IMG/VR virus record: IMGVR_UViG_2718218452_000007
Direction: 5' to 3' (one strand)
DNA from: a virus
Lineage: Duplodnaviria > Heunggongvirae > Uroviricota > Caudoviricetes
Length of the DNA: 34,932 bases
Made by a program: the position numbers and the translations under genes. Positions 10,241 to 34,932 of this stretch are shown here, piece by piece; positions within the stretch are counted from its first letter, which is position 1; each line of letters starts with the position of its first letter. The notes below the pieces were generated by a model that saw nothing but the letters and a program-made list of their open reading frames with translations, searched no databases and was not told where the DNA came from.

Positions 10241-10245
10241 GATGT

Positions 10246-15212: not shown

Positions 15213-15215
15213 CCG

Positions 15216-16771: not shown

Positions 16772-16774
16772 CGC

Positions 16775-17056: not shown

Positions 17057-17553
17057 TGCCGGTAATTAACACGCATCAGAATATCGCCGCCTTTCTCGAC
17101 ATGCTGGCGGTATCCGAAGGGACGGCGAATCATCCGCTGACGAAAAACCGTGGCTATGACGTGATAGTCACCGGACTGGACGGGAAGCCGGAAATTTTCA
17201 CCGACTACAGTGACCACCCGTTCGCGCATGGCCGACCGGCGAAGGTCTTTAACCGTCGCGGTGAAAAGTCCACGGCATCCGGTCGCTATCAGCAGCTTTA
17301 CCTGTTCTGGCCGCACTACCGCAAACAGCTTGCCCTGCCGGATTTCAGTCCGTTGTCACAGGACAGGCTCGCCATTCAGTTGATCCGCGAACGCGGTGCA
17401 CTGGATGACATCCGGGCGGGACGCATTGAGCGCGCTATTTCACGCTGTCGCAATATCTGGGCGTCCCTGCCGGGAGCCGGTTACGGTCAGCGTGAGCATT
17501 CACTGGAAAAACTGGTCACCGTCTGGCGTACCGCTGGCGGCGTACCGGCTTAA
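17056..17553 (+). CDS. K: Endolysin (lysozyme-like)
   Basis: 165 aa; position after the holin. Confidence 0.9.
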   Translation: MPVINTHQNIAAFLDMLAVSEGTANHPLTKNRGYDVIVTGLDGKPEIFTDYSDHPFAHGRPAKVFNRRGEKSTASGRYQQLYLFWPHYRKQLALPDFSPLSQDRLAIQLIRERGALDDIRAGRIERAISRCRNIWASLPGAGYGQREHSLEKLVTVWRTAGGVPA

Positions 17554-17567
17554 ACGGAGTAAACACC

Positions 17568-17993
17568 ATGAAGAAATTATCCCTTTCACTGATGCTGAAC
17601 GTGTCGCTGGCGCTGATGCTGGCACTGTCCCTGATTTACCCGCAGAGCGTGGCCGTCAATTTTGTCGCTGCCTGGGCGATTCTGGCGACGGTTATCTGTG
17701 TGGTTGACGGTGGTGTCGGCGTGTATGCCACTGAGTATGTGCTGGAACGCTACGGGCGGGAGCTGCCGCCGGAATCGCTGGCCGTGAAGATTGTCACGGC
17801 GCTGTTTTTGCAGCCGGTGCCGTGGCGCAGACGGGCGGCGGCTCTGGTGGTGATGGTGGCGACGTTTATCGCGCTGGTCGCTGCCGGGTGGATTTTTACC
17901 GCGCTGATTTATCTCGTGGCGTCGCTGTTTTTCCGGCTGATACGCACGGCCTGCCGTCAGCGTCTTGAGGGGCGGGAACTATGTCAAAGCTGA
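17568..17993 (+). CDS. lysA: Lysis timing protein LysA (membrane protein)
   Basis: 141 aa, several hydrophobic helices. Confidence 0.85.
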   Translation: MKKLSLSLMLNVSLALMLALSLIYPQSVAVNFVAAWAILATVICVVDGGVGVYATEYVLERYGRELPPESLAVKIVTALFLQPVPWRRRAAALVVMVATFIALVAAGWIFTALIYLVASLFFRLIRTACRQRLEGRELCQS

Positions 17994-18424
17994 TGATTGC
18001 ACTGGTCGTGTTGTTATCGCTGGCGGTGGCGGGGCTGTTTCTGGCGAAGCATGAAAACGCCAGACTGCGCGCCTCACTGGACAGGGCGAACAACGTCGCC
18101 AGCGGGCAGCAGACGACCATCACCATGCTGAAAAATCAGCTTCATGTTGCCCTCACCAGAGCAGACAAAAACGAGCTGGCGCAGGTGGTACTGCGTCAGG
18201 AACTGGAGAACGCCGCGAAGCGTGAAGCACAGCGCGAGAAAACCATCACGAGGTTACTTAATGAAAACGAAGATTTTCGCCGCTGGTACGGCGCTGACCT
18301 GCCTGATGCTGTGCGCCGGTTGCACCAGCGCCCCGCCTGCACCGACGCCAGTGATTGTCCACAACGCCTGCCCGAAAGTGAGTCTTTGCCCGATGCCGGG
18401 CAGCGACCCGGAGACGAACGGTGA
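17981..18424 (+). CDS. lysB: LysB (Rz-like inner-membrane spanin)
   Basis: N-terminal transmembrane helix then charged coiled-coil-like region; overlaps the lysA end. Confidence 0.82.
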   Translation: MSKLMIALVVLLSLAVAGLFLAKHENARLRASLDRANNVASGQQTTITMLKNQLHVALTRADKNELAQVVLRQELENAAKREAQREKTITRLLNENEDFRRWYGADLPDAVRRLHQRPACTDASDCPQRLPESESLPDAGQRPGDER

Positions 18425-18551
18425 TTTAAGTGCCGATATCCGGCAGCTTGAGAACGCGCTGGCGCGCTGTGCCAGCCAGGTAAAAATGATTAAACACTGT
18501 CAGGACGAAAACGATGCTCAAACCCGACAGCCTGCGCAGGGCGCTGACTGA
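18261..18551 (+). CDS. lysC: LysC (Rz1-like outer-membrane lipoprotein spanin), embedded in the +1 frame of lysB
   Basis: ATG 18261 gives MKTKIFAAGTALTCLMLCAGC with a lipobox, then a Pro-rich region; tracked ORF is 39 codons longer. Confidence 0.8.
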   Translation: MKTKIFAAGTALTCLMLCAGCTSAPPAPTPVIVHNACPKVSLCPMPGSDPETNGDLSADIRQLENALARCASQVKMIKHCQDENDAQTRQPAQGAD

Positions 18552-18981
18552 TGCCGTCACGGTGCTGAAAACTAACCCCGATATGCTGCGGATATTCGTG
18601 GATCACGGGAGTATTGCCTCCACGCTGGCGGCGTCGTTGTCATTCGAAAAGCGTTACACGCTCAATGTCATTGTGACCGACTTTACCGGTGATTTTGACC
18701 TGCTCATCGTGCCGGTGCTGGCGTGGCTGCGGGTAAATCAGCCCGACATCATGACCACCGACGCAGGTCAGAAAAAGGGCTTCACGTTTTATGCAGACAT
18801 CAACAATGACAGCAGCTTTGATATCAGCATCAGCCTGATGCTGACCGAGCGAACGCTGGTCAGTGAGGTGGACGGCGCACTGCATGTGAAGAATATCCCG
18901 GAACCTCCGCCGCCGGAGCCGGTCACCCGCCCGGTGGAGCTTTATATCAATGGCGAACTGGTGAGTAAGTGGGATGAATGA
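18514..18981 (+). CDS. R: Tail completion protein R
   Basis: 155 aa, P2 order. Confidence 0.88.
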   Translation: MLKPDSLRRALTDAVTVLKTNPDMLRIFVDHGSIASTLAASLSFEKRYTLNVIVTDFTGDFDLLIVPVLAWLRVNQPDIMTTDAGQKKGFTFYADINNDSSFDISISLMLTERTLVSEVDGALHVKNIPEPPPPEPVTRPVELYINGELVSKWDE

Positions 18982-19426
18982 GTTTAAGCGTTTTGAAGAC
19001 CGGCTGACCGGGCTGATTGAATCGCTGTCACCGTCAGGGCGTCGGCGACTGAGCGCCGAACTGGCGAAACGTCTGCGTCAGAGTCAGCAGCGTCGGGTGA
19101 TGGCACAGAAAGCCCCGGACGGCACACCCTACGCGCCACGTCAGCAGCAGAGCGCCAGAAAAAAGACCGGTCGCGTTAAGCGAAAAATGTTTGCGAAACT
19201 TATCACCAGTCGTTTTTTGCATATCCGCGCCAGCCCGGAACAGGCATCAATGGAATTTTACGGCGGGAAGTCGCCGAAAATCGCCAGTGTGCATCAGTTC
19301 GGTCTGTCGGAAGAAACCCGGAAAGACGGTAAGAAAATTGATTATCCGGCGCGTCCTCTGCTCGGCTTTACCGGTGAGGATGTGCAGATGATTGAAGAGA
19401 TTATCCTGGCTCACCTTGAGCGTTAG
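18974..19426 (+). CDS. S: Tail completion protein S
   Basis: 150 aa, overlaps the R end. Confidence 0.88.
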   Translation: MNEFKRFEDRLTGLIESLSPSGRRRLSAELAKRLRQSQQRRVMAQKAPDGTPYAPRQQQSARKKTGRVKRKMFAKLITSRFLHIRASPEQASMEFYGGKSPKIASVHQFGLSEETRKDGKKIDYPARPLLGFTGEDVQMIEEIILAHLER

Positions 19427-19456
19427 TTTTATCCAGGCAGAGGCTGATGCGCAATT

Positions 19457-19491
19457 AAACATTGAGCGGCCATGCTGGTCGCTCAATGTTT
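19457..19491. terminator. 12-bp perfect hairpin between convergent S and the cargo gene (likely bidirectional terminator)
   Basis: aaacattgagcg / loop gccatgctggt / cgctcaatgttt; flanking T/A runs are weak. Confidence 0.45.
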
Positions 19492-19497
19492 AGAGGT

Positions 19498-20283
19498 TTA
19501 TGAGTGATTTTTATTTGATGCTTTGTATTCTACAACCTTCTTATTGGCGTAAAGGAATTTTGTATATGACAGGAATATAACCAGACCTGAAATGAAATAG
19601 ATGAGGGATATTATTAATAATGCTTTTTTTTGGCTGTTATTATCTTTAATCTCCTGACTTAACCATTCCGAGTCCTCCTCGTTTAGCTGTAAGAGCTTAT
19701 TGCAGGCGATCTCAGGAAGTGTGTCTTTTATAAATACGTTTCGTAGCCTCTTGCAATCGGCAAGGCTATAAGTTTTATTGAATTCAACTGTTTTATTGTT
19801 GAAGGATAAAAGAACTTTGTCACTATAAACATAGTACATCATATTTTTATATGGTATGCCTATGGCATCTCTTACTATAACGGATTGTTTGTTGTGTATA
19901 TAACATGCGAAGAGAATATAAATAATGCTGGACAGAATTACAATTATTGTTTTAATTATGTGTGGTGGTTTTGTTATGTCACCCCAGAAGCGAGTAAGAA
20001 AAAAATACGATGTTTTTAGTTTTCCATCAATCAGCCCCTGCTGTATCATTCTCACATCTTCGATGCCTGATACATTGATTCCGTTAATTATTTTAAATAG
20101 TTGAATGTCGCGCCATTTTTTGTCGAGCATTTTTAACTTTCTGTCTGAATACTCAAAATTGAAATGATGTGCAATAAACCTCATAAGATTACTTTTACCA
20201 AAGGTAATAAATGTTAATGCTATTAATAAAAATAGATACAAAGAGATAAACCACCACGCATTAGTCACATTATCACTGAACAT
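19498..20283 (-). CDS. Hypothetical 261-aa integral membrane protein (cargo at the P2 orf30 position)
   Basis: AT-rich ORF with GAGGAGA Shine-Dalgarno; three hydrophobic helices (WWFISLYLFLLIALTFITF, IIKTIIVILSSIIYILFACYI, ALLIISLIYFISGLVIFLSY); opposite strand to the late operons. Confidence 0.75.
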   Translation of the reverse strand: MFSDNVTNAWWFISLYLFLLIALTFITFGKSNLMRFIAHHFNFEYSDRKLKMLDKKWRDIQLFKIINGINVSGIEDVRMIQQGLIDGKLKTSYFFLTRFWGDITKPPHIIKTIIVILSSIIYILFACYIHNKQSVIVRDAIGIPYKNMMYYVYSDKVLLSFNNKTVEFNKTYSLADCKRLRNVFIKDTLPEIACNKLLQLNEEDSEWLSQEIKDNNSQKKALLIISLIYFISGLVIFLSYTKFLYANKKVVEYKASNKNHS

Positions 20284-20300
20284 TACGCTCTCCTCGAATG

Positions 20301-20319
20301 TTGTATGGTCGTTCTACAA
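20301..20319 (+). promoter_or_regulatory. Late-promoter activator element upstream of V
   Basis: TTGT-N11-ACAA, a perfect 4-bp dyad; same pattern as at 13121 and 26607. Confidence 0.45.
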
Positions 20320-20366
20320 ATGAATCCAGATAGCATAACTTTTATATATTGTGCAATCTCACACGC

Positions 20367-21002
20367 ATGAACACTCTCGCAAATATTCAGGAACTCGCGC
20401 GCGCACTGCGCAACATGATTCGTACCGGCCTTGTCGTCGAAACCAACCTTAAAGCCGGTCGCTGCCGTGTGCAGACCGGTGGCATGTGCACTGACTGGCT
20501 TCAGTGGCTGACCCATCGTGCCGGACGTTCGCGCACATGGTGGGCACCTTCCGTGGGGGAGCAGGTGCTGATTCTGGCTGTGGGCGGTGAACTCGACACG
20601 GCGTTCGTTCTGCCGGGGATTTATTCCGGCGATAACCCCGCGCCGTCTGCGTCGGCGGATGCCCTGCATATCCGTTTCCCTGACGGGGCGGTGATTGAGT
20701 ATGAACCCGAAACCAGTGCACTCACGGTAAGCGGAATTAAAACGGCCAGCGTGACGGCTTCTGATTCTGTTACTGCCACGGTGCCGGTGGTCATGGTGAA
20801 AGCATCAACCCGCGTCACCCTGGACACACCGGAGGTGGTCTGCACCAACAGGCTGATTACCGGCACGCTGGAAGTGCAGAAGGGCGGGACGATGCACGGC
20901 AACATTGAACACACCGGCGGTGAACTCTCATCAAACGGTAAGGTACTGCATACCCATAAACACCCCGGCGACAGCGGCGGCACAACCGGGAGCCCTCTAT
21001 GA
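20367..21002 (+). CDS. V: Baseplate spike protein
   Basis: 211 aa from ATG 20367 (MNTLANIQ...); tracked ORF starts at a TTG 6 codons earlier. Confidence 0.9.
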   Translation: MNTLANIQELARALRNMIRTGLVVETNLKAGRCRVQTGGMCTDWLQWLTHRAGRSRTWWAPSVGEQVLILAVGGELDTAFVLPGIYSGDNPAPSASADALHIRFPDGAVIEYEPETSALTVSGIKTASVTASDSVTATVPVVMVKASTRVTLDTPEVVCTNRLITGTLEVQKGGTMHGNIEHTGGELSSNGKVLHTHKHPGDSGGTTGSPL

Positions 21003-21346
21003 CAGCGCGTTATCTCGGAATGAATCGCAGTGATGGCCTGACGGTCACTGACCTTGAGCATATCAGCCAGAGTATCGGCGATATCCTGCGCACACCGGTC
21101 GGCTCACGGGTGATGCGTCGTGATTACGGCTCGTTGCTGGCGTCAATGATTGACCAGCCGCAGACCCCGGCGCTTGAGTTGCAGATTAAGGTCGCCTGTT
21201 ACATGGCGGTGCTGAAATGGGAACCCCGCGTCACGCTGTCATCTGTCACCACGGCGCGCAGTTTTGACGGGCGAATGACGGTCACGTTAACCGGCCAGCA
21301 CAACGACACCGGCCAGCCACTTTCGTTAACCATCCCTGTGAGTTGA
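20999..21346 (+). CDS. W: Baseplate wedge protein (gp25-like)
   Basis: 115 aa, overlapping stop/start with V. Confidence 0.9.
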   Translation: MTARYLGMNRSDGLTVTDLEHISQSIGDILRTPVGSRVMRRDYGSLLASMIDQPQTPALELQIKVACYMAVLKWEPRVTLSSVTTARSFDGRMTVTLTGQHNDTGQPLSLTIPVS

Positions 21347-21350
21347 AACC

Positions 21351-22259
21351 ATGCCGATTATCGACCTGAACCAGCTACCCGCACCGGATGTGGTCGAGGA
21401 GCTGGACTTTGAAACCATTCTCGCCGAACGCAAGGCGACACTGATTTCCCTTTACCCGGAAGACCAGCAGGAGGCGGTCGCCCGTACCCTGACGCTGGAA
21501 TCTGAGCCTCTCGTCAAACTGCTGGAGGAAAATGCTTATCGTGAGCTTATCTGGCGTCAGCGTGTGAATGAGGCCGCACGGGCGGTAATGCTGGCCTGTG
21601 CCGCCGGTAATGACCTTGATGTGATTGGTGCCAATTACAACACCACGCGCCTGATTATCACCCCGGCAGATGATTCGACCCTCCCGCCGACACCGGCAGT
21701 GATGGAATCTGACACGGATTATCGTCTGCGTATTCAGCAGGCGTTTGAAGGTTTAAGCGTTGCCGGGTCGGTGGGTGCCTATCAGTATCATGGTCGCAGT
21801 GCCGACGGGCGCGTCGCAGATATCTCTGTCACCAGTCCGTCTCCGGCCTGCGTCACCATCTCTGTGCTGTCACGTGAAAATAACGGTGTCGCATCCGAAG
21901 ACCTGCTGGCTGTGGTACGTAACGCCCTTAATGGCGAGGACGTCAGGCCGGTGGCCGACCGCGTGACCGTGCAGTCTGCCGCCATTGTTGAATATCAGAT
22001 AAACGCCACGCTTTACCTTTACCCTGGCCCCGAAAGCGAACCCATCCGCGCCGCCGCCGTGAAAAAACTGGAAGCGTACATCACGGCACAGCACCGGCTG
22101 GGGCGCGACATCCGTCTGTCTGCCATTTATGCCGCTTTGCATGTGGAAGGCGTGCAGCGTGTCGAACTGGCTGCACCACTGGCTGACATCGTGCTCAACA
22201 GTACGCAGGCGTCTTTCTGTACCGAATACCGCGTCGTGACCGGAGGCTCGGATGAGTGA
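21351..22259 (+). CDS. J: Baseplate protein J
   Basis: 302 aa. Confidence 0.9.
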   Translation: MPIIDLNQLPAPDVVEELDFETILAERKATLISLYPEDQQEAVARTLTLESEPLVKLLEENAYRELIWRQRVNEAARAVMLACAAGNDLDVIGANYNTTRLIITPADDSTLPPTPAVMESDTDYRLRIQQAFEGLSVAGSVGAYQYHGRSADGRVADISVTSPSPACVTISVLSRENNGVASEDLLAVVRNALNGEDVRPVADRVTVQSAAIVEYQINATLYLYPGPESEPIRAAAVKKLEAYITAQHRLGRDIRLSAIYAALHVEGVQRVELAAPLADIVLNSTQASFCTEYRVVTGGSDE

Positions 22260-22782
22260 TTCGCGCCTGCTGCCGACCGGTTCATCACCGCTTGAAGTTG
22301 CCGCCGCAAAAGCCTGTGCGGAAATTGAAAAAACGCCGGTCAGGATTCGTGAGCTGTGGAACCCGGACACCTGCCCGGCAAATCTGCTGCCGTGGCTGGC
22401 GTGGGCGTTTTCGGTCGACAGGTGGGATGAAAAGTGGCCGGAAGCGACAAAACGCGCCGTTATCCGCGATGCCTATTTCATCCACTGTCATAAAGGCACT
22501 ATCGGCGCAATCCGGCGTGTGGTGGAGCCGCTCGGCTATCTCATCAACGTGACGGAGTGGTGGGAAAACAGTGACCCGCCCGGCACCTTCCGCCTTGATA
22601 TTGGTGTACTGGAAAGCGGTATCACAGAGGCAATGTATCAGGAAATGGAACGGCTGATTGCTGATGCCAAACCTGCAAGCCGTCACCTTATTGGTCTGAA
22701 CATTACCCGGGACATTCCCGGCTACCTGTTCGCCGGTGGTGTGGCTTATGACGGCGATGTAATTACGGTTTACCCCGGATAA
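22252..22782 (+). CDS. I: Baseplate protein I
   Basis: 176 aa, overlaps the J end. Confidence 0.9.
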   Translation: MSDSRLLPTGSSPLEVAAAKACAEIEKTPVRIRELWNPDTCPANLLPWLAWAFSVDRWDEKWPEATKRAVIRDAYFIHCHKGTIGAIRRVVEPLGYLINVTEWWENSDPPGTFRLDIGVLESGITEAMYQEMERLIADAKPASRHLIGLNITRDIPGYLFAGGVAYDGDVITVYPG

Positions 22783-22792
22783 GTGAGGAATA

Positions 22793-25024
22793 ATGAGCAC
22801 AAAATTCAGAACCGTTATCACCACTGCTGGTGCAGCAAAGCTGGCAGCGGCAACCGCGCCGGGAGGGCGGAAGGTCAACATTACCACGATGGCCGTCGGG
22901 GATGGCGGTGGTAAATTGCCTGTCCCGGATGCCGGACAGACCGGGCTTATCCACGAAGTCTGGCGACATGCGCTGAACAAAATCAGCCAGGACAAACGAA
23001 ACAGTAATTATATTATCGCAGAGCTGGTTATTCCGCCGGAGGTGGGCGGTTTCTGGATGCGTGAGCTTGGCCTGTACGATGATGCTGGAACGTTAATTGC
23101 CGTGGCGAACATGGCTGAAAGTTATAAGCCAGCTCTTGCCGAAGGCTCAGGGCGTTCGCAGACCTGCCGCATGGTCATCATCGTCAGCAGTGTGGCCTCA
23201 GTGGCGCTGACCATTGACACCACAACGGTGATGGCAACGCAGGATTACGTTGATGACAAAATTGCAGAACATGAACAGTCACGACGTCACCCGGACGCCT
23301 CGCTGACCGCCAAAGGTTTTACTCAGTTAAGCAGTGCGACCAACAGCACGTCTGAAACACTCGCCGCAACACCAAAAGCGGTAAAAGCAGCATATGACCT
23401 TGCTAACGGGAAATACACTGCACAGGACGCCACCACAGCGCGAAAAGGCCTTGTCCAGCTCAGTAGTGCCACCAACAGCACGTCTGAAACGCTCGCCGCA
23501 ACACCAAAAGCGGTAAAAGCAGCATATGACCTTGCTAACGGGAAATACACTGCACAGGACGCCACCACCGCGCGAAAAGGCCTTGTCCAGCTCAGTAGCG
23601 CCACCAACAGCGATTCTGAAACGCTTGCGGCAACGCCAAAGGCGGTTAAGACAGCGTATGACCTTGCTAACGGGAAATACACTGCACAGGATGCCACCAC
23701 AGCGCGAAAAGGTCTTGTCCAGCTCAGTAGCGCCACCAACAGTGATTCTGAAACGCTGGCTGCAACACCAAAAGCGGTGAAGTCTGCCTATGACAATGCT
23801 GAAAAACGTCTTCAGAAAGATCAGAACGGCGCGGATATTCCTGATAAAGATCGCTTCCTGAGTAACATTAATGTTTACAGCAAAGGCGAGGTGGATAAGA
23901 AAAAAGGAATGCGGCTGTACGTATTTAACGCGCCGTCTAATGCTGTTGGTGGAAAGTGGTATCCAGTTATTTTCCGGCGTTCCACTGGTAGCACTGGCGA
24001 ACTGGCTTCCAGAGTGGTTATTACAACCACATCTGCCGGTGGTGATTACGCAATGAATAACTGCGAATTTAATGGAATGGTAATGCCCGGAGGTTGGACT
24101 GATCGTGGTTCATATGCAGCAGGTTATTTTTCGACATATCAGACTAATGAGCGCGCAATCCATTCCATTGTAACAAGCCTGAAAGAAGATGATGTATGCA
24201 GCGTTTTTTACGTTGAAGGCAGGGCTTTTCCTGTGCGAGTTTTTGCCGAAGAAGGGCTAACGGTTATTGTTCCAACTCAGGATTATACCGTCGGTCAAAC
24301 AACATATAAGTGGGGAGCAACTAATCCCGCGACAGAAAGCACGAACGCACAAGCCATTCTGGATTTTAACAATGGGCGAGGGTTTTATTGTTCTCACTCA
24401 ATATTCGGTATTAATGCCATTTTTAGCGGAAATCTGGGGATTGGAACGGCTAATGCCCTGGGTGGAAATTCAATAGTTTTAGGAGATAACGATACCGGGT
24501 TTAAACAAAATGGTGATGGGGTGCTGGATGCTTATGCTAATGGTGTGCATGTATTCCGCTTTATAAATGGTTCAGCAAGATCATTAAAGGGTATTCAGGC
24601 TGGGGAAAGTAAGTTCTTCACACTTTCAAGTGCAAATACCGCTGCCCGTAATGCATCATTTAACTTGTGGGGAAATTCGTCAAGACCAACTGTTGCAGAG
24701 CTTGGTGATGATTCAGGCTGGCATTTCTATAGTCAGCGAAATACAGATAACTCGGTGATATTTGCTGTAAACGGTCAGATACAACCAAGCAACTGGGATA
24801 ACATTGATTCCCGATATGTGAAAGATGTTCGGCTTGGCTCACAGCAATATTATGGTGTGAACAACTGGCAAACATGGAACTTTCAGTGCCCTTCAGGTCA
24901 TGTATTGTCTGGTATAAATGTTCAGGATACAGGTTCCAACTCCGCCGATAATATTGCGGGTGTTTATTACAGACCCGTTCAAAAGTATATAAATGGCACA
25001 TGGTATAATGTAGCGAGCGTTTAA
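22793..25024 (+). CDS. H: Tail fiber protein H (N-terminus P2-like, repeats, divergent distal domain)
   Basis: 743 aa; conserved N-terminus [20 protein letters not shown]; four 44-aa tandem repeats; AT-richer C-terminal half. Confidence 0.9.
23326..23810 (+). repeat. Tandem 132-bp repeat (about 3.7 copies) inside H
   Basis: caacagcacg recurs at 23341 and 23473; encodes LSSATNS(T/D)[12 protein letters not shown](A/T/S)[23 protein letters not shown] x4; generates spurious ORFs on both strands. Confidence 0.85.
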
Positions 25025-25553: not shown

Positions 25554-25774
25554 GTTGTATAAGCTCTGGTGTGAGATTACATATCTATGGCACAGAGTAA
25601 AGCCTAATCTGACAGGCCGCTCTGTGTCTGGAGTAGATTTTAGTAAAGCATTATTTTATTAGTGCAAATTCTAAACAATACATTTTATGTATATGATATC
25701 CTGCGGACTTTAATGATTTGGTTTAGGCTAACCAGATAACACTGAAGGAATATTTTTGATAATTAAGGTGCGGT

Positions 25775-26368
25775 ATGTTTACTAAGCGACGATTAAAAAA
25801 TATTAACTGGGAGGCAAGTTCAGTGATTCTTGCTATGGTTCTCTTTGCTGGAAATATATTTTATACAAATCATCGTGATGATATAAGCATGGAGGCTGAG
25901 AGAGACAGTATCAGAACAATGTTTGCATATGAAATCGCTAATAACCATCGCGCTCTCACCTTTCTTGATAAAACGAGAAATATTGGCTTTGACGAAAATT
26001 CGGAGCATTTTGTTGGCGAGCCTTTTGCCATTAATGTCAAATCATCAGGGGGACCTCGCTTACAGATTGCATTAAACCAGACTGATAAAGTGTTTAAATC
26101 ATACTTCAGCGAATTAAGTAAGCTTGATAAAGAGGATGTTACTCTTCTTATGGACTATTACCATGAGCAAAGCATCCTGCTGGAGCGTGTAAAATCTACG
26201 TTACAGAAGATGAAAAGTGGTAATGATATTAAAGTTGATATTGATGGTTACTTATTAGAAGAACACTTCATGAATGAGCTTAATCTTTCTAATATTTTGC
26301 TTAAACGCTATAGCTATTTATTATCACAGCACGCTAAAGAACATAAAACAAAAGATTTACATAATTGA
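25775..26368 (+). CDS. Hypothetical 197-aa protein with N-terminal membrane anchor (cargo at the P2 Z/fun position)
   Basis: AT-rich ORF with AAGGTG Shine-Dalgarno; one hydrophobic helix near the N-terminus (SSVILAMVLFAGNIFY), then a charged soluble domain. Confidence 0.72.
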   Translation: MFTKRRLKNINWEASSVILAMVLFAGNIFYTNHRDDISMEAERDSIRTMFAYEIANNHRALTFLDKTRNIGFDENSEHFVGEPFAINVKSSGGPRLQIALNQTDKVFKSYFSELSKLDKEDVTLLMDYYHEQSILLERVKSTLQKMKSGNDIKVDIDGYLLEEHFMNELNLSNILLKRYSYLLSQHAKEHKTKDLHN

Positions 26369-26563
26369 TAATCTGCTAATGGTTATTCATGGGGTAACTA
26401 TGTTTTATATGTAATCCAGCTCAGATGAATTATTGATTCTGGATAATAACCGCAGAGCGGCATATACCCTGACAGGCAAATGTCCGCTTCTTGCTCAAAG
26501 CAGACTGTCAGATTTGATAACTTTTGGGCTATGTAAACTGTCAGTCGGAAAATGAGTGTGTAC

Positions 26564-26590
26564 AAATCAGGACAGGCGGGCGAATTGCCC
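26564..26590 (+). terminator. Intrinsic terminator upstream of the FI late promoter
   Basis: ggcgggc-gaatt-gcccgc followed by attttcttt. Confidence 0.6.
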
Positions 26591-26606
26591 GCATTTTCTT
26601 TATCTG

Positions 26607-26625
26607 TTGTTTCATCCACTGACCA
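26607..26625 (+). promoter_or_regulatory. Late-promoter activator element upstream of FI
   Basis: TTGT-N11-ACCA, about 80 nt upstream of the FI start. Confidence 0.45.
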
Positions 26626-26697
26626 GCCAGGTCAAATAGCGTCTCATGCTCTGCACAACAGAAAATAGTTGCACCCATTAACCACGGAGTTAAACGG

Positions 26698-27888
26698 ATG
26701 AGTGACTATCATCACGGCGTGCAGGTGCTGGAGATTAACGACGGCACCCGCGTCATTTCCACCGTATCCACAGCCATTGTCGGCATGGTCTGCACGGCCA
26801 GCGATGCGGATGCGGAAACCTTTCCCCTCAATAAACCGGTGCTGATTACCAATGTGCAGAGCGCAATTGCAAAGGCCGGTAAAAAAGGCACGCTGGCGGC
26901 GTCGTTGCAGGCCATAGCTGACCAGTCAAAACCGGTCACCGTTGTTGTACGTGTGGAAGACGGCACCGGCGAAGACGAAGAAACGAAACTTGCGCAGACC
27001 GTTTCCAATATCATTGGCACCACCGACGAAAACGGTCAGTACACCGGACTGAAAGCCCTGCTGGCGGCGGAGTCGGTAACCGGTGTTAAACCGCGTATTC
27101 TCGGCGTGCCGGGACTGGACACCAAAGAGGTGGCTGTTGCACTGGCATCAGTCTGTCAGAAGCTGCGCGCTTTCGGATATATCAGCGCATGGGGCTGTAA
27201 GACCATTTCCGAGGTGAAAGCCTACCGCCAGAATTTCAGCCAGCGTGAGCTGATGGTCATCTGGCCGGATTTCCTCGCATGGGATACGGTCACCAGTACC
27301 ACCGCCACCGCGTATGCCACCGCCCGTGCGCTGGGTCTGCGCGCTAAAATCGACCAGGAGCAGGGCTGGCATAAAACGCTGTCCAACGTCGGGGTAAACG
27401 GTGTTACCGGCATCAGCGCATCCGTCTTCTGGGATTTGCAGGAGTCCGGCACCGATGCTGACCTGCTTAACGAGTCAGGCGTCACTACGCTGATTCGCCG
27501 CGACGGTTTCCGCTTCTGGGGTAACCGTACCTGCTCCGATGACCCGCTGTTCCTCTTTGAAAACTACACCCGCACCGCGCAGGTGCTGGCCGACACGATG
27601 GCTGAGGCGCACATGTGGGCGGTGGACAAGCCCATCACCGCAACGCTGATTCACGACATCGTTGACGGCATCAATGCCAAATTTCGTGAGCTGAAAACAA
27701 ACGGCTATATCGTGGATGCGACCTGCTGGTTCAGCGAAGAATCCAACGATGCGGAAACCCTCAAGGCCGGAAAACTGTATATCGACTACGACTATACCCC
27801 GGTGCCTCCTCTCGAAAACCTGACCCTGCGCCAGCGTATTACCGATAAATACCTGGCAAATCTGGTCACCTCGGTTAACAGCAATTAA
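26698..27888 (+). CDS. FI: Contractile tail sheath protein
   Basis: 396 aa; GGAG Shine-Dalgarno. Confidence 0.92.
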   Translation: MSDYHHGVQVLEINDGTRVISTVSTAIVGMVCTASDADAETFPLNKPVLITNVQSAIAKAGKKGTLAASLQAIADQSKPVTVVVRVEDGTGEDEETKLAQTVSNIIGTTDENGQYTGLKALLAAESVTGVKPRILGVPGLDTKEVAVALASVCQKLRAFGYISAWGCKTISEVKAYRQNFSQRELMVIWPDFLAWDTVTSTTATAYATARALGLRAKIDQEQGWHKTLSNVGVNGVTGISASVFWDLQESGTDADLLNESGVTTLIRRDGFRFWGNRTCSDDPLFLFENYTRTAQVLADTMAEAHMWAVDKPITATLIHDIVDGINAKFRELKTNGYIVDATCWFSEESNDAETLKAGKLYIDYDYTPVPPLENLTLRQRITDKYLANLVTSVNSN

Positions 27889-27900
27889 GGAGCCTGACCG

Positions 27901-28419
27901 ATGGCAATGCCGCGCAAACTCAAGTTAATGAACGTCTTTCTGAACGGCTACAGCTATCAGGGCGTCGCGAAGTCCGTCACGCTACCAAAACTGACCCGTA
28001 AGCTCGAAAACTATCGCGGTGCGGGGATGAACGGCAGCGCACCGGTAGACCTCGGCCTTGATGACGATGCGCTGTCAATGGAGTGGTCGCTCGGTGGCTT
28101 CCCGGATTCGGTTATCTGGGAGCTTTACGCAGCAACCGGCGTGGATGCCGTGCCGATTCGTTTTGCTGGCTCTTACCAGCGCGACGATACCGGCGAAACG
28201 GTTGCCGTCGAAGTGGTCATGCGTGGACGTCAGAAAGAAATCGATACCGGCGAGGGTAAACAGGGAGAAGACACCGAGTCGAAAATCTCCGTGGTCTGTA
28301 CCTATTTCCGGCTGACGATGGACGGTAAGGAGCTGGTCGAAATCGACACCATCAACATGATTGAGAAGGTGAACGGCGTCGACCGGCTGGAGCAACACCG
28401 CCGCAATATCGGCCTGTGA
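27901..28419 (+). CDS. FII: Tail tube protein
   Basis: 172 aa. Confidence 0.92.
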   Translation: MAMPRKLKLMNVFLNGYSYQGVAKSVTLPKLTRKLENYRGAGMNGSAPVDLGLDDDALSMEWSLGGFPDSVIWELYAATGVDAVPIRFAGSYQRDDTGETVAVEVVMRGRQKEIDTGEGKQGEDTESKISVVCTYFRLTMDGKELVEIDTINMIEKVNGVDRLEQHRRNIGL

Positions 28420-28475
28420 TTTTCATCCGGTCAGCCTGGCTGACCGGTTAACCCTGATTCAGAAGTGAGAAAACC

Positions 28476-28751
28476 ATGAACAAAGAAAATGTGATTACCC
28501 TGGACAATCCGGTCAAACGTGGTGAGCAGGTTATCGAACAGGTCACGCTGATGAAACCCAGTGCCGGGACGCTGCGCGGTGTCAGTCTGGCTGCGGTCGC
28601 GAACTCCGAAGTCGATGCACTGATTAAGGTGCTGCCGCGCATGACTGCACCGATGCTGACCGAGCAGGAAGTCGCCGCACTGGAACTGCCTGACCTTGTG
28701 GCGCTGGCCGGTAAGGTGGTCGGTTTTTTGTCGCCGAACTCGGTGCAGTGA
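28476..28751 (+). CDS. E: Tail assembly chaperone E
   Basis: 91 aa; slippery heptamer near the 3' end. Confidence 0.88.
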   Translation: MNKENVITLDNPVKRGEQVIEQVTLMKPSAGTLRGVSLAAVANSEVDALIKVLPRMTAPMLTEQEVAALELPDLVALAGKVVGFLSPNSVQ

Positions 28752-28903
28752 CGTTCCCGAAAAATCTGTCGGTCGATGACCTGATGGCGGATGTGGCAGT
28801 GATATTTCACTGGCCGCCATCAGAACTGTATCCCATGAGCCTGACCGAACTCATCACATGGCGCGAAAAGGCGCTCCGGCGAAGCGGAAACACGAATGAG
28901 TAA
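28476..28903 (+). CDS. E+E': E+E' fusion made by programmed -1 ribosomal frameshift
   Basis: Slippery T TTT TTG at 28724-28730; the -1 frame stays open to TAA 28901-28903, giving 142 aa in total. Confidence 0.75.
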
Positions 28904-31343
28904 CAATGTAAAATTACAGGTATTGCTCAGGGCTGTTGACCAGGCATCCCGCCCGTTTAAATCCATCCGTACAGCGAGCAGGTCGCTGTCGGGGGATATC
29001 CGGGAAACACAAAAATCACTGCGCGAGCTGAACGGTCACGCATCCCGTATTGAGGGATTCCGCAAGACCAGTGCACAGCTCGCCGTGACTGGTCATGCAC
29101 TTGAAAAGGCACGGCAGGAAGCCGAAGCCCTTGCCACACAGTTTAAAAACACCGAACGTCCGACCCGTGCTCAGGCGAAAGTGCTGGAATCCGCAAAGCG
29201 TGCGGCGGAGGACTTACAGGCGAAATATAACCGCCTGACGGATTCCGTTAAACGCCAGCAGCGGGAACTGGCCGCTGTGGGAATTAATACCCGCAATCTT
29301 GCACATGATGAGCAGGGACTGAAAAACCGTATCAGTGAAACCACCGCACAGCTTAACCGTCAGCGTGATGCGCTGGCGCGTGTCAGTGCGCAACAGGCAA
29401 AACTTAACGCAGTAAAACAGCGTTATCAGGCCGGAAAGGAACTGGCCGGAAATATGGCCTCAGTGGGCGCTGCCGGTGTGGGGATTGCGGCGGCGGGAAC
29501 GATGGCCGGTGTTAAGCTACTGATGCCCGGTTATGAGTTTGCGCAGAAAAACTCAGAATTGCAGGCCGTGCTAGGTGTGGCAAAAGACTCCGCCGAAATG
29601 GCCGCACTCCGCAAGCAGGCGCGCCAGCTCGGCGACAATACCGCCGCCTCGGCAGATGATGCAGCCGGTGCGCAGATTATTATTGCGAAAGCCGGTGGGG
29701 ATGTTGATGCCATTCAGGCGGCAACGCCGGTCACGCTGAACATGGCGCTGGCGAACCGCCGCACGATGGAAGAAAACGCCGCCCTGTTGATGGGGATGAA
29801 ATCCGCCTTTCAGCTTTCAAACGATAAGGTCGCTCATATCGGGGATGTTCTCTCCATGACGATGAACAAAACCGCCGCCGATTTTGACGGCATGAGCGAT
29901 GCGCTGACCTATGCCGCACCTGTGGCAAAAAATGCCGGTGTCAGCATTGAAGAAACCGCCGCAATGGTCGGGGCGCTGCATGATGCAAAAATTACCGGTT
30001 CAATGGCGGGGACGGGAAGCCGTGCCGTGTTAAGCCGCCTGCAGGCACCGACGGGAAAAGCATGGGATGCACTGAAAGAGCTTGGTGTGAAAACCTCAGA
30101 CAGCAAGGGAAACACCCGGCCAGTATTTACCATTCTGAAAGAAATGCAGGCCAGTTTTGAGAAAAACCGGCTCGGTACTGCCCGGCAGGCTGAATACATG
30201 AAAACCATTTTCGGGGAGGAGGCCAGCTCAGCCGCCGCCGTGCTGATGACTGCCGCCTCAACCGGAAAGCTGGACAAACTGACCGCTGCGTTTAAAGCCT
30301 CAGACGGGAAGACCGCCGAGCTGGTAAATATCATGCAGGACAACCTCGGCGGTGACTTTAAGGAGTTTCAGTCCGCTTATGAGGCGGTGGGGACAGACCT
30401 GTTTGACCAGCAGGAAGGCGCGCTGCGTAAGCTCACGCAGACGGCCACAAAGTATGTGTTAAAACTCGACGGCTGGATACAGAAAAACAAATCACTGGCG
30501 TCAACCATCGGCCTCATTGTCGGTGGCGCACTGGCGCTTACTGGCATCATCGGTGCCATTGGTCTTGTAGCCTGGCCGGTTATCACCGGCATTAATGCCA
30601 TCATCGCGGCAGCAGGCGCAATGGGGGCAATTTTCATGACGGTTGGCAGTGCTGTTATGACCGCCATCGGGGCGATTAGCTGGCCGGTTGTGGCCGTGGT
30701 GGCCGCCATTGTCGCCGGGGCGTTACTTATCCGTAAATACTGGGAGCCTGTCAGCGCATTCTTTGGCGGTGTGGTGGAAGGGCTGAAAGCGGCATTTGCG
30801 CCGGTGGGGGAACTGTTCACGCCACTGAAACCGGTGTTTGACTGGCTGGGCGAAAAGTTACAGGCCGCGTGGCAGTGGTTTAAAAACCTGATTGCCCCGG
30901 TCAAAGCCACCCAGGACACCCTGAACCGTTGCCGTGATACGGGCGTCATGTTCGGGCAGGCACTGGCTGACGCGCTGATGCTGCCGCTTAATGCGTTCAA
31001 CAAACTGCGCAGTGGTATTGACTGGGTACTGGAAAAACTCGGTGTTATCAACAAAGAGTCAGACACACTTGACCAGACCGCCGCAAGGACTCATGCCGCC
31101 ACGTATGGCACCGGTGGTTATATTCCGGCGACCAGCTCTTATGCAGGCTATCAGGCTTATCAGCCGGTCACGGCACCGGCTGGCCGCTCTTATGTGGACC
31201 AGAGTAAAAACGAATATCACATCAGCCTGACCGGTGGTACTGCGCCGGGGACACAGCTTGACCGCCAGTTACAGGATGCGCTCGAAAAATACGAGCGGGA
31301 TAAACGTGCGCGCGCCCGTGCCAGCATGATGCATGACGGTTAA
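28896..31343 (+). CDS. T: Tail tape measure protein
   Basis: 815 aa, coiled-coil N-terminus and Gly/Ala-rich hydrophobic middle. Confidence 0.92.
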   Translation: MSNNVKLQVLLRAVDQASRPFKSIRTASRSLSGDIRETQKSLRELNGHASRIEGFRKTSAQLAVTGHALEKARQEAEALATQFKNTERPTRAQAKVLESAKRAAEDLQAKYNRLTDSVKRQQRELAAVGINTRNLAHDEQGLKNRISETTAQLNRQRDALARVSAQQAKLNAVKQRYQAGKELAGNMASVGAAGVGIAAAGTMAGVKLLMPGYEFAQKNSELQAVLGVAKDSAEMAALRKQARQLGDNTAASADDAAGAQIIIAKAGGDVDAIQAATPVTLNMALANRRTMEENAALLMGMKSAFQLSNDKVAHIGDVLSMTMNKTAADFDGMSDALTYAAPVAKNAGVSIEETAAMVGALHDAKITGSMAGTGSRAVLSRLQAPTGKAWDALKELGVKTSDSKGNTRPVFTILKEMQASFEKNRLGTARQAEYMKTIFGEEASSAAAVLMTAASTGKLDKLTAAFKASDGKTAELVNIMQDNLGGDFKEFQSAYEAVGTDLFDQQEGALRKLTQTATKYVLKLDGWIQKNKSLASTIGLIVGGALALTGIIGAIGLVAWPVITGINAIIAAAGAMGAIFMTVGSAVMTAIGAISWPVVAVVAAIVAGALLIRKYWEPVSAFFGGVVEGLKAAFAPVGELFTPLKPVFDWLGEKLQAAWQWFKNLIAPVKATQDTLNRCRDTGVMFGQALADALMLPLNAFNKLRSGIDWVLEKLGVINKESDTLDQTAARTHAATYGTGGYIPATSSYAGYQAYQPVTAPAGRSYVDQSKNEYHISLTGGTAPGTQLDRQLQDALEKYERDKRARARASMMHDG

Positions 31344-31357
31344 GGAGGTGACGAAAA

Positions 31358-31837
31358 ATGATGCTCGCGTTAGGTATGTTTGTTTTTATGCGCCAGACGC
31401 TGCCACACCAGACCATGCAGCGTGAATCAGATTATCGCTGGCCGTCAAATTCCCGTATCGGTAAACGGGATGCCTACCAGTTTCTCGGCGTTGGCGAGGA
31501 AAACATCACGCTTGCCGGTGTGCTTTATCCCGAACTGACCGGCGGAAAGCTGACGATGACCACGCTCAGGCTGATGGCAGAGGAAGGCCGGGCGTGGCCG
31601 TTGCTGGATGGCACCGGCATGATTTACGGCATGTATGTCATCAGCAGGGTGAGTGAAACAGGGAGTATTTTCTTTGCAGACGGCACACCCCGGAAAATTG
31701 ATTTTACGCTGTCGCTCACCCGCGTTGATGAATCACTGGCCGCGCTTTATGGCGATATCGGTAAACAGGCGGAATCGCTCATCGGTAAAGCTGGCAGTAT
31801 GGCGACCAGATTCACGGGTATGACGGGGGCGGGATAA
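31358..31837 (+). CDS. U: Tail protein U
   Basis: 159 aa. Confidence 0.9.
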   Translation: MMLALGMFVFMRQTLPHQTMQRESDYRWPSNSRIGKRDAYQFLGVGEENITLAGVLYPELTGGKLTMTTLRLMAEEGRAWPLLDGTGMIYGMYVISRVSETGSIFFADGTPRKIDFTLSLTRVDESLAALYGDIGKQAESLIGKAGSMATRFTGMTGAG

Positions 31838-33000
31838 TGCTGGATGCACTGACATTTGATGCAGGCAGTACGCTGACGCCGGATTACATGCTGATGCTCG
31901 ACAGCAGGGATATTACCGGCAATATCAGCGACCGTCTGATGAGCATGACTCTGACGGATAACCGGGGCTTTGAGGCTGACCAGCTTGATATTGAACTGAA
32001 CGATGCCGACGGGCAGGTAGGGCTACCGGTTCGTGGCGCTGTCCTGACGGTGTATATCGGCTGGAAAGGTTTTGCCCTGGTATGCAAAGGGAAATTTACC
32101 GTTGATGAGGTTGAACACCGGGGCGCGCCGGATGTGGTTACCATCCGCGCCCGAAGTGCAGATTTTCGCGGGACGCTCAATTCCCGCCGTGAAGGCTCAT
32201 GGCATGACACCACGCTCGGTGCGATTGTTGAGGCGATAGCCTCCCGTAACAGGCTGGAAGCCAGTGTTGCTCCGTCACTGGCCGGAATTAAAATCCCGCA
32301 CATCGACCAGTCGCAGGAGTCTGATGCGAAATTCCTGACCCGTCTTGCAGAACGCAACGGCGGTGAGGTGTCGGTAAAAATGGGAAAACTGTTGTTTCTC
32401 AAAGCGGGGCAGGGGGTGACGGCCAGTGGTAAAAAAATCCCGCAGGTCACCATAACCCGCAGCGACGGCGACCGCCATCATTTTGCGATTGCTGACCGTG
32501 GAGCCTATACCGGCGTAACGGCAAAGTGGTTACACACCAAAGACCCGAAGCCGCAAAAGCAGAAGGTAAAACTGAAACGCAAAAAGAAAGAGAAACACCT
32601 GCGCGCACTGGAGCACCCGAAAGCGAAACCAGTCACGCAGAAGAAAGCGCCAAAAGTACCGGAAGCGCGCGAAGGTGAATACATGGCTGGTGAGGCTGAT
32701 AACGTTTTTGCCCTGACCACGGTATATGCCACGAAAGCGCAGGCTATGCGCGCCGCTCAGGCGAAGTGGGACAAACTGCAACGGGGCGTTGCGGAGTTCT
32801 CCATCAGCCTTGCCACTGGTCGGGCAGATATTTACACGGAAACGCCGGTTAAAGTGTCAGGCTTTAAGCGCGTCATAGACGAGCAGGACTGGACCATCAC
32901 TAAGGTGACACATTTTCTGAATAATAGCGGCTTCACGACGTCCTTAGAGCTTGAGGTCAGGCTTTCTGATGTGGAGTACGAAACAGAAGATGATGAGTGA
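31837..33000 (+). CDS. D: Tail protein D
   Basis: 387 aa, start overlaps the U stop. Confidence 0.9.
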   Translation: MLDALTFDAGSTLTPDYMLMLDSRDITGNISDRLMSMTLTDNRGFEADQLDIELNDADGQVGLPVRGAVLTVYIGWKGFALVCKGKFTVDEVEHRGAPDVVTIRARSADFRGTLNSRREGSWHDTTLGAIVEAIASRNRLEASVAPSLAGIKIPHIDQSQESDAKFLTRLAERNGGEVSVKMGKLLFLKAGQGVTASGKKIPQVTITRSDGDRHHFAIADRGAYTGVTAKWLHTKDPKPQKQKVKLKRKKKEKHLRALEHPKAKPVTQKKAPKVPEAREGEYMAGEADNVFALTTVYATKAQAMRAAQAKWDKLQRGVAEFSISLATGRADIYTETPVKVSGFKRVIDEQDWTITKVTHFLNNSGFTTSLELEVRLSDVEYETEDDE

Positions 33001-33081
33001 TATTTTTATTTTATATGTTTGTTTTATAAGGATAAATTAACTAAAATGACACCATCAACAAAACCGGAAGAGGTGCTCGCG

Positions 33082-33300
33082 ATGTTTCATTGTCCTTTAT
33101 GCCAGCATGCCGCACATGCGCGTACAAGTCGCTATATCACTGACACGACAAAAGAGCGTTATCACCAGTGTCAGAACGTGAATTGCAGCGCCACGTTCAT
33201 CACTTATGAGTCGGTACAGCGATACATCGTGAAGCCGGGAGAAGTCCACGCCGTGAGGCCGCACCCGTTGCCGTCAGGGCAGCAAATTATGTGGATGTGA
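33082..33300 (+). CDS. ogr: Late gene activator Ogr (zinc-finger)
   Basis: 72 aa from ATG 33082 with CPLC...CQNVNC zinc finger; tracked ORF starts 21 codons earlier. Confidence 0.9.
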   Translation: MFHCPLCQHAAHARTSRYITDTTKERYHQCQNVNCSATFITYESVQRYIVKPGEVHAVRPHPLPSGQQIMWM

Positions 33301-33310
33301 TCACAAAAAT

Positions 33311-33336
33311 AGCCCCTCAGTCGAGGGGCTTTTTTG
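33311..33336 (+). terminator. Intrinsic terminator after ogr
   Basis: agcccctc-agtc-gaggggct followed by TTTTTT. Confidence 0.8.
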
Positions 33337-33339
33337 TCG

Positions 33340-33359
33340 ATGTGGTCAATGTGTGGACG
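33340..33359 (+). promoter_or_regulatory. Putative Int arm-type binding sites (P arm)
   Basis: atgtggtca and gtgtggacg, related to the tgtggaca repeats at 1906-1927. Confidence 0.4.
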
Positions 33360-33398
33360 TGACCAGAAATAAATCCTTTTATTTCATTGTATTACGCG

Positions 33399-33426
33399 TA
33401 AAAAATAAGCCCGTGTAAGGGAGATT
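33399..33426. repeat. attR core (28-bp direct repeat, right prophage boundary)
   Basis: Identical to 1790..1817; lies within the 3' end of cyaR. Confidence 0.85.
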
Positions 33427-33486
33427 ACACAGGCTAAGGAGGTGGTTCCTGGTACAGCTAGCATTTTATGGGTTATGTTTTTCAGC
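33400..33486 (-). ncRNA. cyaR: Hfq-dependent small RNA CyaR (RyeE)
   Basis: Minus-strand sequence GCUGAAAAACAUAACCC...CCUCCUUAGCC...CUUAUUUUUU matches CyaR as recalled; terminal hairpin plus U-run; TATCAT -10 at -13..-8. Confidence 0.8.
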
Positions 33487-33516
33487 GAAACGGATGATAA
33501 CCTTAATAAATGCAGC

Positions 33517-33538
33517 TGTATGTGATCGGTTTCTAAGA
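33517..33538 (-). promoter_or_regulatory. CRP binding site of the cyaR promoter
   Basis: TGTGA-N6-TCtaA centred about 42 bp upstream of the inferred cyaR 5' end, a class II position. Confidence 0.55.
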
Positions 33539-33570
33539 ATTTTCCATCCGGGAAAAATAATCGAAATTAA

Positions 33571-34932
33571 TCACTTACCGTGGGGATTACGCGTGGTTTC
33601 CCCGGAGAAATTACGCATCAGCAGCGCGTAATTGAGCTCAAGATCCTGCGGGACCGGGAGCCACACAGTATAACCATCGCCTGGTGCTATCGGCATAGCT
33701 TCGCCTTTGGCGTTTTCCATGTGCTCAAGGGTAAAATTAATGTTGCCTTGCGGCGTCATCAGCTCAAGGCTGTCGCCAACGGAGAATTTATTTTTCACCG
33801 CTACCGCCGCGAGGTCCCCCTTGCGCTCACCGGTAAACTCACCAACAAACTGCTGGCGGTCAGAAACTGAATAACCGTATTCGTAGTTCTGATAATCGTC
33901 GTGAGTATGACGACGCAGGAAACCTTCGGTATAGCCACGATGCGCCAGACCTTCCAGAGTTTCCAGCAGGCTGGTATCGAACGGTTTTCCCGCAGCGGCG
34001 TCATCGATAGCTTTGCGGTAAACCTGTGCGGTGCGTGCACAATAGTAGAAAGATTTGGTACGACCTTCGATTTTCAGCGAATGCACGCCCATTTTGGTCA
34101 GGCGTTCTACATGGGCGATGGCGCGCAGATCTTTCGAGTTCATGATGTAAGTGCCGTGCTCATCTTCAAACGCGGTCATATACTCGCCCGGACGCTGGGC
34201 CTCTTCGATCATAAACACTTTGTCGGTTGGTGCGCCGATACCCAGCGTCGGCTCAACATTTTGCACCGGAATCGGCTCGTACTTGTGTACGATGTTGCCA
34301 ACATCATCTTCTTTCCCTTCCTGGACGTTGTACTCCCAGCGGCAGGCGTTGGTGCAGGTGCCCTGGTTCGGGTCGCGCTTGTTGATATAGCCAGAGAGCA
34401 GGCAGCGACCGGAGTAGGCCATGCACAGCGCGCCGTGAACGAAGATCTCGATCTCCATATCCGGCACCTGATTGCGGATCTCTTCAATCTCTTCCAGCGA
34501 CAGCTCGCGAGAGAGGATCACGCGGGTCAGGCCCATTTGCTGCCAGAATTTCACCGTCGCCCAGTTCACGGCGTTAGCCTGCACCGAAAGGTGGATCGGC
34601 ATTTCAGGGAAGTGCTCACGCACCAGCATAATCAGCCCTGGATCGGACATAATCAGCGCATCCGGCCCCATTTCCACCACCGGTTTCAGGTCACGGATAA
34701 AGGTTTTCAGCTTGGCGTTGTGCGGTGCAATGTTGACCACGACATAAAACTTTTTCCCCAGCGCGTGGGCTTCATTGATGCCGAGCTGAAGATTTTCGTG
34801 GTTGAATTCGTTGTTGCGCACACGCAGGGAATAACGCGGCTGGCCCGCATAAACAGCATCTGCGCCATAAGCGAAAGCGTAACGCATATTTTTCAGCGTT
34901 CCCGCCGGGGAAAGGAGTTCCGGTTTAAACAT
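33571..34932 (-). CDS. yegQ: Peptidase U32-family protein YegQ (RlhA, 23S rRNA 5-hydroxycytidine synthase)
   Basis: 453 aa, start codon at the window end (34930-34932); N-terminus MFKPELLSPAGTLKNMRYAFAYGADAVYAGQP as recalled. Confidence 0.88.
   Translation of the reverse strand: MFKPELLSPAGTLKNMRYAFAYGADAVYAGQPRYSLRVRNNEFNHENLQLGINEAHALGKKFYVVVNIAPHNAKLKTFIRDLKPVVEMGPDALIMSDPGLIMLVREHFPEMPIHLSVQANAVNWATVKFWQQMGLTRVILSRELSLEEIEEIRNQVPDMEIEIFVHGALCMAYSGRCLLSGYINKRDPNQGTCTNACRWEYNVQEGKEDDVGNIVHKYEPIPVQNVEPTLGIGAPTDKVFMIEEAQRPGEYMTAFEDEHGTYIMNSKDLRAIAHVERLTKMGVHSLKIEGRTKSFYYCARTAQVYRKAIDDAAAGKPFDTSLLETLEGLAHRGYTEGFLRRHTHDDYQNYEYGYSVSDRQQFVGEFTGERKGDLAAVAVKNKFSVGDSLELMTPQGNINFTLEHMENAKGEAMPIAPGDGYTVWLPVPQDLELNYALLMRNFSGETTRNPHGK

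Follow-up and report, generated by a model that had tools for sequence, protein, structure and literature searches.

A P2 prophage at the 3' end of the small RNA gene cyaR in an Escherichia coli chromosome

Can a phage integrate into the end of a small RNA gene and leave that gene whole? The question is raised by a stretch of 34,932 nucleotides from the IMG/VR virus record IMGVR_UViG_2718218452_000007 (the whole stretch is termed "the window" below), which contains a 31.6-kb prophage bounded by a 28-bp direct repeat. An earlier reading of the letters, made without database searches (the "sequence-only reading"), had proposed that this repeat is the att core of the prophage and coincides with the terminator end of the small RNA CyaR. 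At a probability of about 95%, the window is an E. coli chromosome segment with the order yegS-yegR-P2 prophage-cyaR-yegQ, in which P2 has entered the 3' end of cyaR by Int-mediated, site-specific recombination with its attP core. This 3' end is the classical chromosomal site of P2, presumably the one named locI in the P2 literature. The host genes on the two sides of the prophage are the following.

1 to 900, minus strand: yegS (lipid kinase), host flank; 299-aa ORF with Pfam domains DAGK_cat and YegS_C, gene order as in K-12.
1315 to 1632, plus strand: yegR, host gene on the attL side; annotated yegR in the 100%-identical empty-site strain E2865.
33571 to 34932, minus strand: yegQ/trhP, host gene upstream of cyaR; 453-aa ORF with Peptidase_U32 domains, annotated yegQ/trhP in matching genomes.

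The prophage shares about 97% DNA identity with bacteriophage P2. Alignment to the P2 record AF063097 by blastn gives three collinear blocks amounting to 26 kb, at window positions 1790-7732 (98.0%), 10058-23517 (97.0%), and 26483-33426 (96.7%). The gene order (int, C, cox, B, A, cargo, cos, Q, P, O ... D, ogr) is permuted, as expected for an integrated P2, and the joined cohesive ends are found inside the element.

1818 to 33398, no strand: P2 prophage body (int ... A, cargo, cos, Q ... D, ogr); three collinear blastn blocks to AF063097.
1897 to 2910, minus strand: int, the P2 tyrosine integrase, beside the att site; 335 of 337 aa identical to P2 Int, Pfam Int_N and Phage_integrase.
3026 to 3325, minus strand: C, the immunity repressor; 99-aa ORF, collinear with P2 C in the 98% block.
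3440 to 3715, plus strand: cox, excision directionality factor and Pc repressor; 91-aa ORF, collinear with P2 cox in the 98% block.
10058 to 10076, no strand: cos site; window position 10058 is P2 position 1, and 10029-10076 correspond to P2 33546-33593.
33082 to 33300, plus strand: ogr, the late-gene activator and last phage gene; intact, 72 aa to the stop codon, matching the annotated Ogr of P2-like phage records.
33311 to 33330, plus strand: ogr/F-operon terminator; terminator-like hairpin, annotated at the equivalent P2 position.

Compared with reference P2, the att system is essentially no different, and the phage departs from P2 only in its cargo, with other genes at the variable old/tin and Z/fun loci, and in the C-terminal part of the tail fibre protein H. 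The old/tin locus has given way to a 2.3-kb segment of 33% GC (7733-10028), which is rare (11 of 5,426 E. coli genomes) and 100% identical to that of strain C7; a megablast search of a phage collection with this segment returned no match. Its single gene belongs to phrog_24946, a PHROG family of unknown function. A frameshift, caused by an additional base within a homopolymer run (8623-8630), splits it into 438 and 88 aa; O157:H16 strain 98-3133 has an unbroken version of 537 aa. At the Z/fun locus (25627-26482), an unannotated cargo ORF of 197 aa (25775-26368, plus strand) is found, a member of phrog_3829, also of unknown function. Searches of the cargo genes against PADLOC and Pfam gave no significant family, their matches being to PHROG families of unknown function only. 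The tail fibre gene H displays three tandem units of 132 bp (44 aa; 23312-23800), at 83-90% identity, vs one in P2, and H is 743 residues long vs 669 in P2. On the 3' side of these units (24395-24980), identity to P2 drops to ~73%, or the sequence cannot be aligned.

It is improbable, though less so than the alternatives discussed further below, that the element is a fixed and defective P2 remnant whose att sites are dead and whose repeat is a scar. Decayed P2 remnants do occupy this site in many E. coli (PR-X of K-12, and the fossil P arm described below), one cargo gene is frameshifted as noted above, and P2 prophages are classically non-inducible. However, both 28-bp cores are perfect, and int, C, cox, A, cos, and the structural genes checked are full length in the ORF list and 97-98% identical to those of viable P2, the sole disruption seen being that of the non-essential cargo. 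An integrated P2 that is probably still able to excise, as judged from these genes and cores, is the reading retained here.

On the host side of the right-hand repeat lies the small RNA gene. A cmscan search of the window gives a single Rfam match at gathering level, RF00112 (CyaR_RyeE), at 33403-33488 on the minus strand, with 100.7 bits (gathering cut-off 47 bits) and an E-value of 3.4e-19, spanning positions 1-85 of the 85 of the model. The name given to this RNA by the sequence-only reading is borne out, since positions 33400..33486 align to K-12 cyaR with 87 identities out of 87. Upstream of the gene, identity to K-12 is found over ~60 nt, which is the extent of the aligned K-12 stretch, and yegQ/trhP lies immediately upstream, a synteny identical to that of the characterised E. 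coli gene and indicative of orthology.

33400 to 33486, minus strand: cyaR (sRNA CyaR/RyeE), intact; RF00112, identical to K-12 b4438.
33499 to 33494, minus strand: cyaR -10 hexamer TATCAT, at -13 to -8; read from the sequence, identical in K-12.
33521 to 33536, no strand: CRP-type site TGTGATCGGTTTCTAA, of the form TGTGA-N6-TCTAA, centred at -42.5 from the annotated +1 (33486); identical in K-12.
33408 to 33435, minus strand: CyaR rho-independent terminator hairpin (predicted fold) of 11 bp with a 6-nt loop, then a U run; the core boundary 33426/33427 falls inside its 5' arm.

The CRP-type site and the -10 hexamer are both located on the host side of the core, where they had been placed from the letters alone, and cAMP-CRP control of CyaR has been stated (PMC5861431). 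A generic sigma-70 scan does not call the cyaR promoter, as would be expected of an activator-dependent promoter devoid of a good -35. The terminator and U tail, which constitute the Hfq-binding module of CyaR, are present as the predicted hairpin and its U run.

The repeat itself, TAAAAAATAAGCCCGTGTAAGGGAGATT, occurs exactly twice in the window, at 1790-1817 and 33399-33426, and identity between the copies ends on either side of the 28 bp. In the right-hand copy, 27 of the 28 bp (33400-33426) are nucleotides 61-87 of CyaR, that is the last 2 nt of the terminator 5' arm, the loop, the 3' arm, and the U tail. In the P2 record, these 28 bp (24356-24383) bear the annotation "attP core", a site of Int binding, and P and P' arms, a Cox-binding region, and an IHF site are annotated around them, which upholds the proposal that the repeat is the att core of the prophage at the end of CyaR.

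1790 to 1817, no strand: attL core; exact 28-bp repeat, with the empty-site arm on its left flank and the P2 P' arm on its right flank.
1834 to 1931, no strand: Cox-binding region and P' arm Int sites; coordinates transferred from P2 24399-24472 (Cox) and 24470-24496 (P' arm), window 1790 being P2 24355 in a collinear and nearly identical alignment.
33337 to 33364, no strand: P arm Int-binding sites, TCGATGTGGTCAATGTGTGGACGTGACC; identical to P2 24293-24320.
33399 to 33426, no strand: attR core, including CyaR nucleotides 61-87; exact repeat, annotated attP core in P2.

A six-way alignment reveals the composition of both junctions. The left one, attL, consists of the left arm of the unoccupied host site followed by the P2 P' arm, and attR of a P2-type P arm followed by the body of cyaR. 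When P2 attP is aligned with the junctions, its P' arm and Cox region are found at attL, and its P arm and IHF region at attR; one 27-mer is common to P2, both junctions of the window, and the empty site. The 23 bases of the attR P arm beside the core show several differences from reference P2 and are identical to those of the K-12 remnant. At attL, positions 1791-1817 repeat the final 27 nt of cyaR as an orphan copy, with the P2 P' arm and int next on the plus strand, in agreement with the sequence-only reading. A search of this orphan fragment found neither a terminator-like hairpin nor a convincing promoter, and a role as functional terminator or RNA was rejected on this basis.

The unoccupied site was reconstructed by joining 1250-1817 to 33427-33950 through a single core, and all complete E. 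coli genomes (5,426) were searched with this query. The 1,092-bp construct is found in one piece, at 100% identity, in E. coli strains E2865 and DEC9B, where the only annotated genes beneath the match are yegR and yegQ; comparison with an unlysogenised yegR-cyaR locus, which had been proposed as a means to define attB, thus yields a site with a single core. The flanks are adjacent in 4,565 of the 5,426 genomes. The attL junction of the window, where the yegR side meets the P' arm and int, occurs in 813 genomes (15%), and an attR-type junction in 1,272 (23%), K-12-like remnants included. A P2-type element at cyaR is a common state of this locus.

These junctions suggest the following course of integration. 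P2 Int, a tyrosine recombinase assisted by IHF, would exchange strands inside the 27/28-bp core shared by attP and the 3' end of cyaR. Because the core covers CyaR nucleotides 61-87, recombination would split the gene, the host retaining the promoter and nucleotides 1-60 or more, and the phage supplying the remainder. Since attP carries the same bases, attR still reads as an unchanged 87-nt cyaR. The host promoter, with its CRP site and -10 hexamer, is untouched by integration, and attL is left with a promoterless, hairpin-less 27-nt fragment beside int. The sequence-only reading had held that the phage-borne copy reconstitutes cyaR at attR. Its first part, an intact gene, stands; its second part, the phage origin of the bases, cannot be demonstrated from the window, as the two cores are identical, and holds in heteroallelic lysogens such as ATCC 11775. 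For the same reason, it is other lysogens that indicate where crossover occurred and that the attR bases came from the phage.

Such lysogens were found through the diversity of the core. A degenerate core pattern run over IMG/VR reveals P2-like att sites with the variant cores ACGCAGGC and ACGCGGGC in place of ACACGGGC. Scanning one genome per species identifies GCCTGCGT...ACGC[A/G]GGC as the native cyaR terminator of Klebsiella, Enterobacter, Citrobacter, Salmonella, Raoultella, and others. The canonical cyaR allele is carried by 4,820 complete E. coli genomes, and a chimeric allele by 30 of the 5,426; in the latter, the E. coli body and 5' arm (GCCTGTGT) are joined to a foreign 3' arm (ACGCAGGC) of the Klebsiella/Citrobacter/Salmonella type. 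A further ~575 genomes possess a cyaR that is neither canonical nor chimeric. In the type strain ATCC 11775 and in APEC O1, both of which were inspected, a P2-family prophage directly follows the chimeric cyaR. In ATCC 11775 (39922-40009 and 4099-4126 of the ATCC 11775 stretch), attR/cyaR harbors the phage-type GCCTGCGT and attL the host-type GCCCGTGT. Furthermore, the same P arm adjoins the chimeric allele in 24 records, with at least 99% identity over the full 154 nt. In heteroallelic lysogens, the attR bases distal to the two marker positions, which correspond to 33412 and 33414 of the window (hence beyond about 33415), are therefore demonstrated to be phage-derived, and the distribution of the markers shows that strand exchange probably takes place within GTAAGGGAGATT (12 bp, window 33415-33426).

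Integration might instead be imagined to damage CyaR: attR would then hold a hybrid copy with changed termination, stability, or Hfq binding, and lysogeny would alter the CyaR regulon, a case of lysogenic conversion. This is very unlikely. The DNA immediately 3' of the U tract does differ, from ATGCATAAGCCC at the empty site to ACGCGTAATACA at attR, which could in principle affect termination or read-through, and a phage-borne core has truly altered the terminator 3' arm in the 30 chimeric E. coli genomes. In the window, however, cyaR matches both K-12 and the empty site at all 87 nt and at the next base, and the same 11-bp hairpin and U run are predicted; even the chimeric terminator is predicted to fold into the same hairpin, at -16.2 vs -15.9 kcal/mol. 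In addition, K-12, the strain in which CyaR was characterised, itself has the attR-type downstream sequence, identical over the aligned stretch. In a P2 lysogen of the kind seen in the window, CyaR expression and function would thus be expected to be unchanged. A separate variant is seen in strain AR_0086, where a C-to-T change inside the att core (GCCTGTGT) converts a U.G wobble of the terminator into a U-A pair, with a predicted energy of -16.6 vs -15.9 kcal/mol.

There is next to no probability that the 28-bp repeat owes nothing to site-specific recombination and arose by chance or as a target-site duplication: nothing beyond the bare existence of a short direct repeat speaks for this, whereas the 27-mer core of the repeat finds no match in 100 shuffles and pre-exists in P2 as the attP core and as a single copy in empty sites, which fits conservative recombination and not duplication by transposition.

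The host DNA beside the attL core holds what looks like a trace of an earlier insertion.

1730 to 1778, plus strand: fossil P2-type P arm (Int arm-binding repeat region), in host DNA beside the attL core; 71% identical to 33323-33371.

Its local alignment with the phage P arm includes a 15/15 match, TCGATGTGGTCAATG, corresponding to one Int arm repeat, and scores 38 vs 14.4 +/- 2.3 for shuffled sequences, none of 2000 shuffles reaching this value. The fossil lies at the same offset from the core as the phage P arm, and the arms on the opposite side of the core give an alignment score of only 12. It is also present at "empty" sites and in K-12, having been seen in E2865, K-12, and AR_0086; therefore, the usual E. 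coli attB looks, from these alignments, like the decayed attR of an older P2-family insertion. Outside E. coli, intact or degenerate P arms were counted by eye directly 3' of cyaR in about 9 of 80 species loci (an approximate figure), for example in Citrobacter youngae, C. amalonaticus, Salmonella diarizonae and arizonae, Huaxiibacter, and Scandinavium, and cyaR is therefore a target of the P2 family well beyond E. coli.

A more far-reaching and rather doubtful proposal is that the 3' half of the CyaR terminator is, across the Enterobacteriaceae, a module trafficked by phages, as opposed to host sequence inherited in a stable manner. Three observations favor it. The unoccupied attB found in nearly all E. 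coli looks like a decayed attR, with a fossil P2 P arm against its core, so that the fixed 3' arm and U tail may descend from an ancient attP; the E. coli-specific change in the 5' arm (C to U) would then be a compensation on the host side. P2-family phages carry cores matched to the differing cyaR alleles of their hosts, and they occasionally install a foreign allele, as in the 30 E. coli genomes. The chimeric alleles are demonstrated; a phage ancestry of the E. coli terminator throughout the species may be envisaged.

P2 at cyaR is ordinary biology and was already on record, in the MG1655 annotation, in the P2 record, and in one genome paper; the correction to be made to the sequence-only reading concerns novelty only. 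In the MG1655 annotation, the cryptic prophage PR-X (2167183-2167811), which comprises ogrK and the D fragment yegZ, shares 18 nt with the 3' end of cyaR, and the K-12 sequence holds a full core at cyaR and a truncated one at the far end of PR-X. At this far end (2812-2835 of the MG1655 stretch), the truncated attL core has an extra A (TAAAAAAATAAGCCCGTGTA) and is fused directly to the D-gene fragment; the PR-X remnant therefore arose by internal deletion. In Table 2 of the E. coli W genome paper, Wphi2 (P2) of W, ogr-D' of K-12, and P2*B of B all have "cyaR RNA" as their insertion site (PMC3032704). This paper was the one relevant result of a full-text literature search on cyaR together with P2-like prophages, integrases, or attachment sites, whose scope did not extend to the original reports on the P2 att site or to the 2009 publication on CyaR. 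In a specialist review on P2, P2-type integrases are described as acting mostly at sites "between other genes", and the word cyaR is absent from its text (PMC3448106). Genome annotation documents the overlap with cyaR better than the phage papers do. Among the E. coli records inspected, those of RefSeq annotated by PGAP have no feature at cyaR, an ncRNA feature being found in MG1655 only; in most records the overlap of att core and gene is therefore invisible.

The closest known systems are P2 attP with the E. coli primary attB, and PR-X (ogrK-yegZ) of K-12: they share with the window the same Int (335 of 337 aa), the 27/28-bp core, the arms, and the position between yegR and cyaR-yegQ. Wphi2 in E. 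coli W and P2*B in E. coli B occupy the same site, named cyaR RNA, in other strains and with different phage cargo, and the paper reporting them has no base-level description of the overlap (PMC3032704). More distant parallels are phage 186 in tRNA-Ile and Fels-2/SopEPhi in ssrA (PMC3448106), P2-type elements at rybB (PMC3032704), and phiEf11 in ffs (PMC12540744). As in integration at the 3' ends of tRNA, tmRNA, or small RNA genes, the core overlaps the 3' end of a structured RNA, the phage-borne 3' segment keeps the gene intact, and an orphan copy is left at the other junction. In contrast with the tRNA and tmRNA cases, the target is an Hfq-dependent regulatory sRNA, of which only the terminator half is duplicated. 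The view of this locus as the sRNA counterpart of tRNA-targeted integration is thereby sustained. A tRNA as the att target was ruled out, a scan of the whole window having found neither tRNA nor tmRNA.

The chimeric terminator alleles and the fossil P arm are modest additions to this picture, and no new kind of system is involved. For annotation, the locus is a reminder that callers of prophage boundaries can miss an att core that lies inside a gene. The chimeric alleles provide a natural map of the Int crossover region down to 12 bp, and illustrate on a small scale how phages exchange pieces of an sRNA across genera. As for CyaR in natural isolates, its last ~15 nt would be phage-supplied in the roughly 15-23% of strains that carry a P2-type element at the site.
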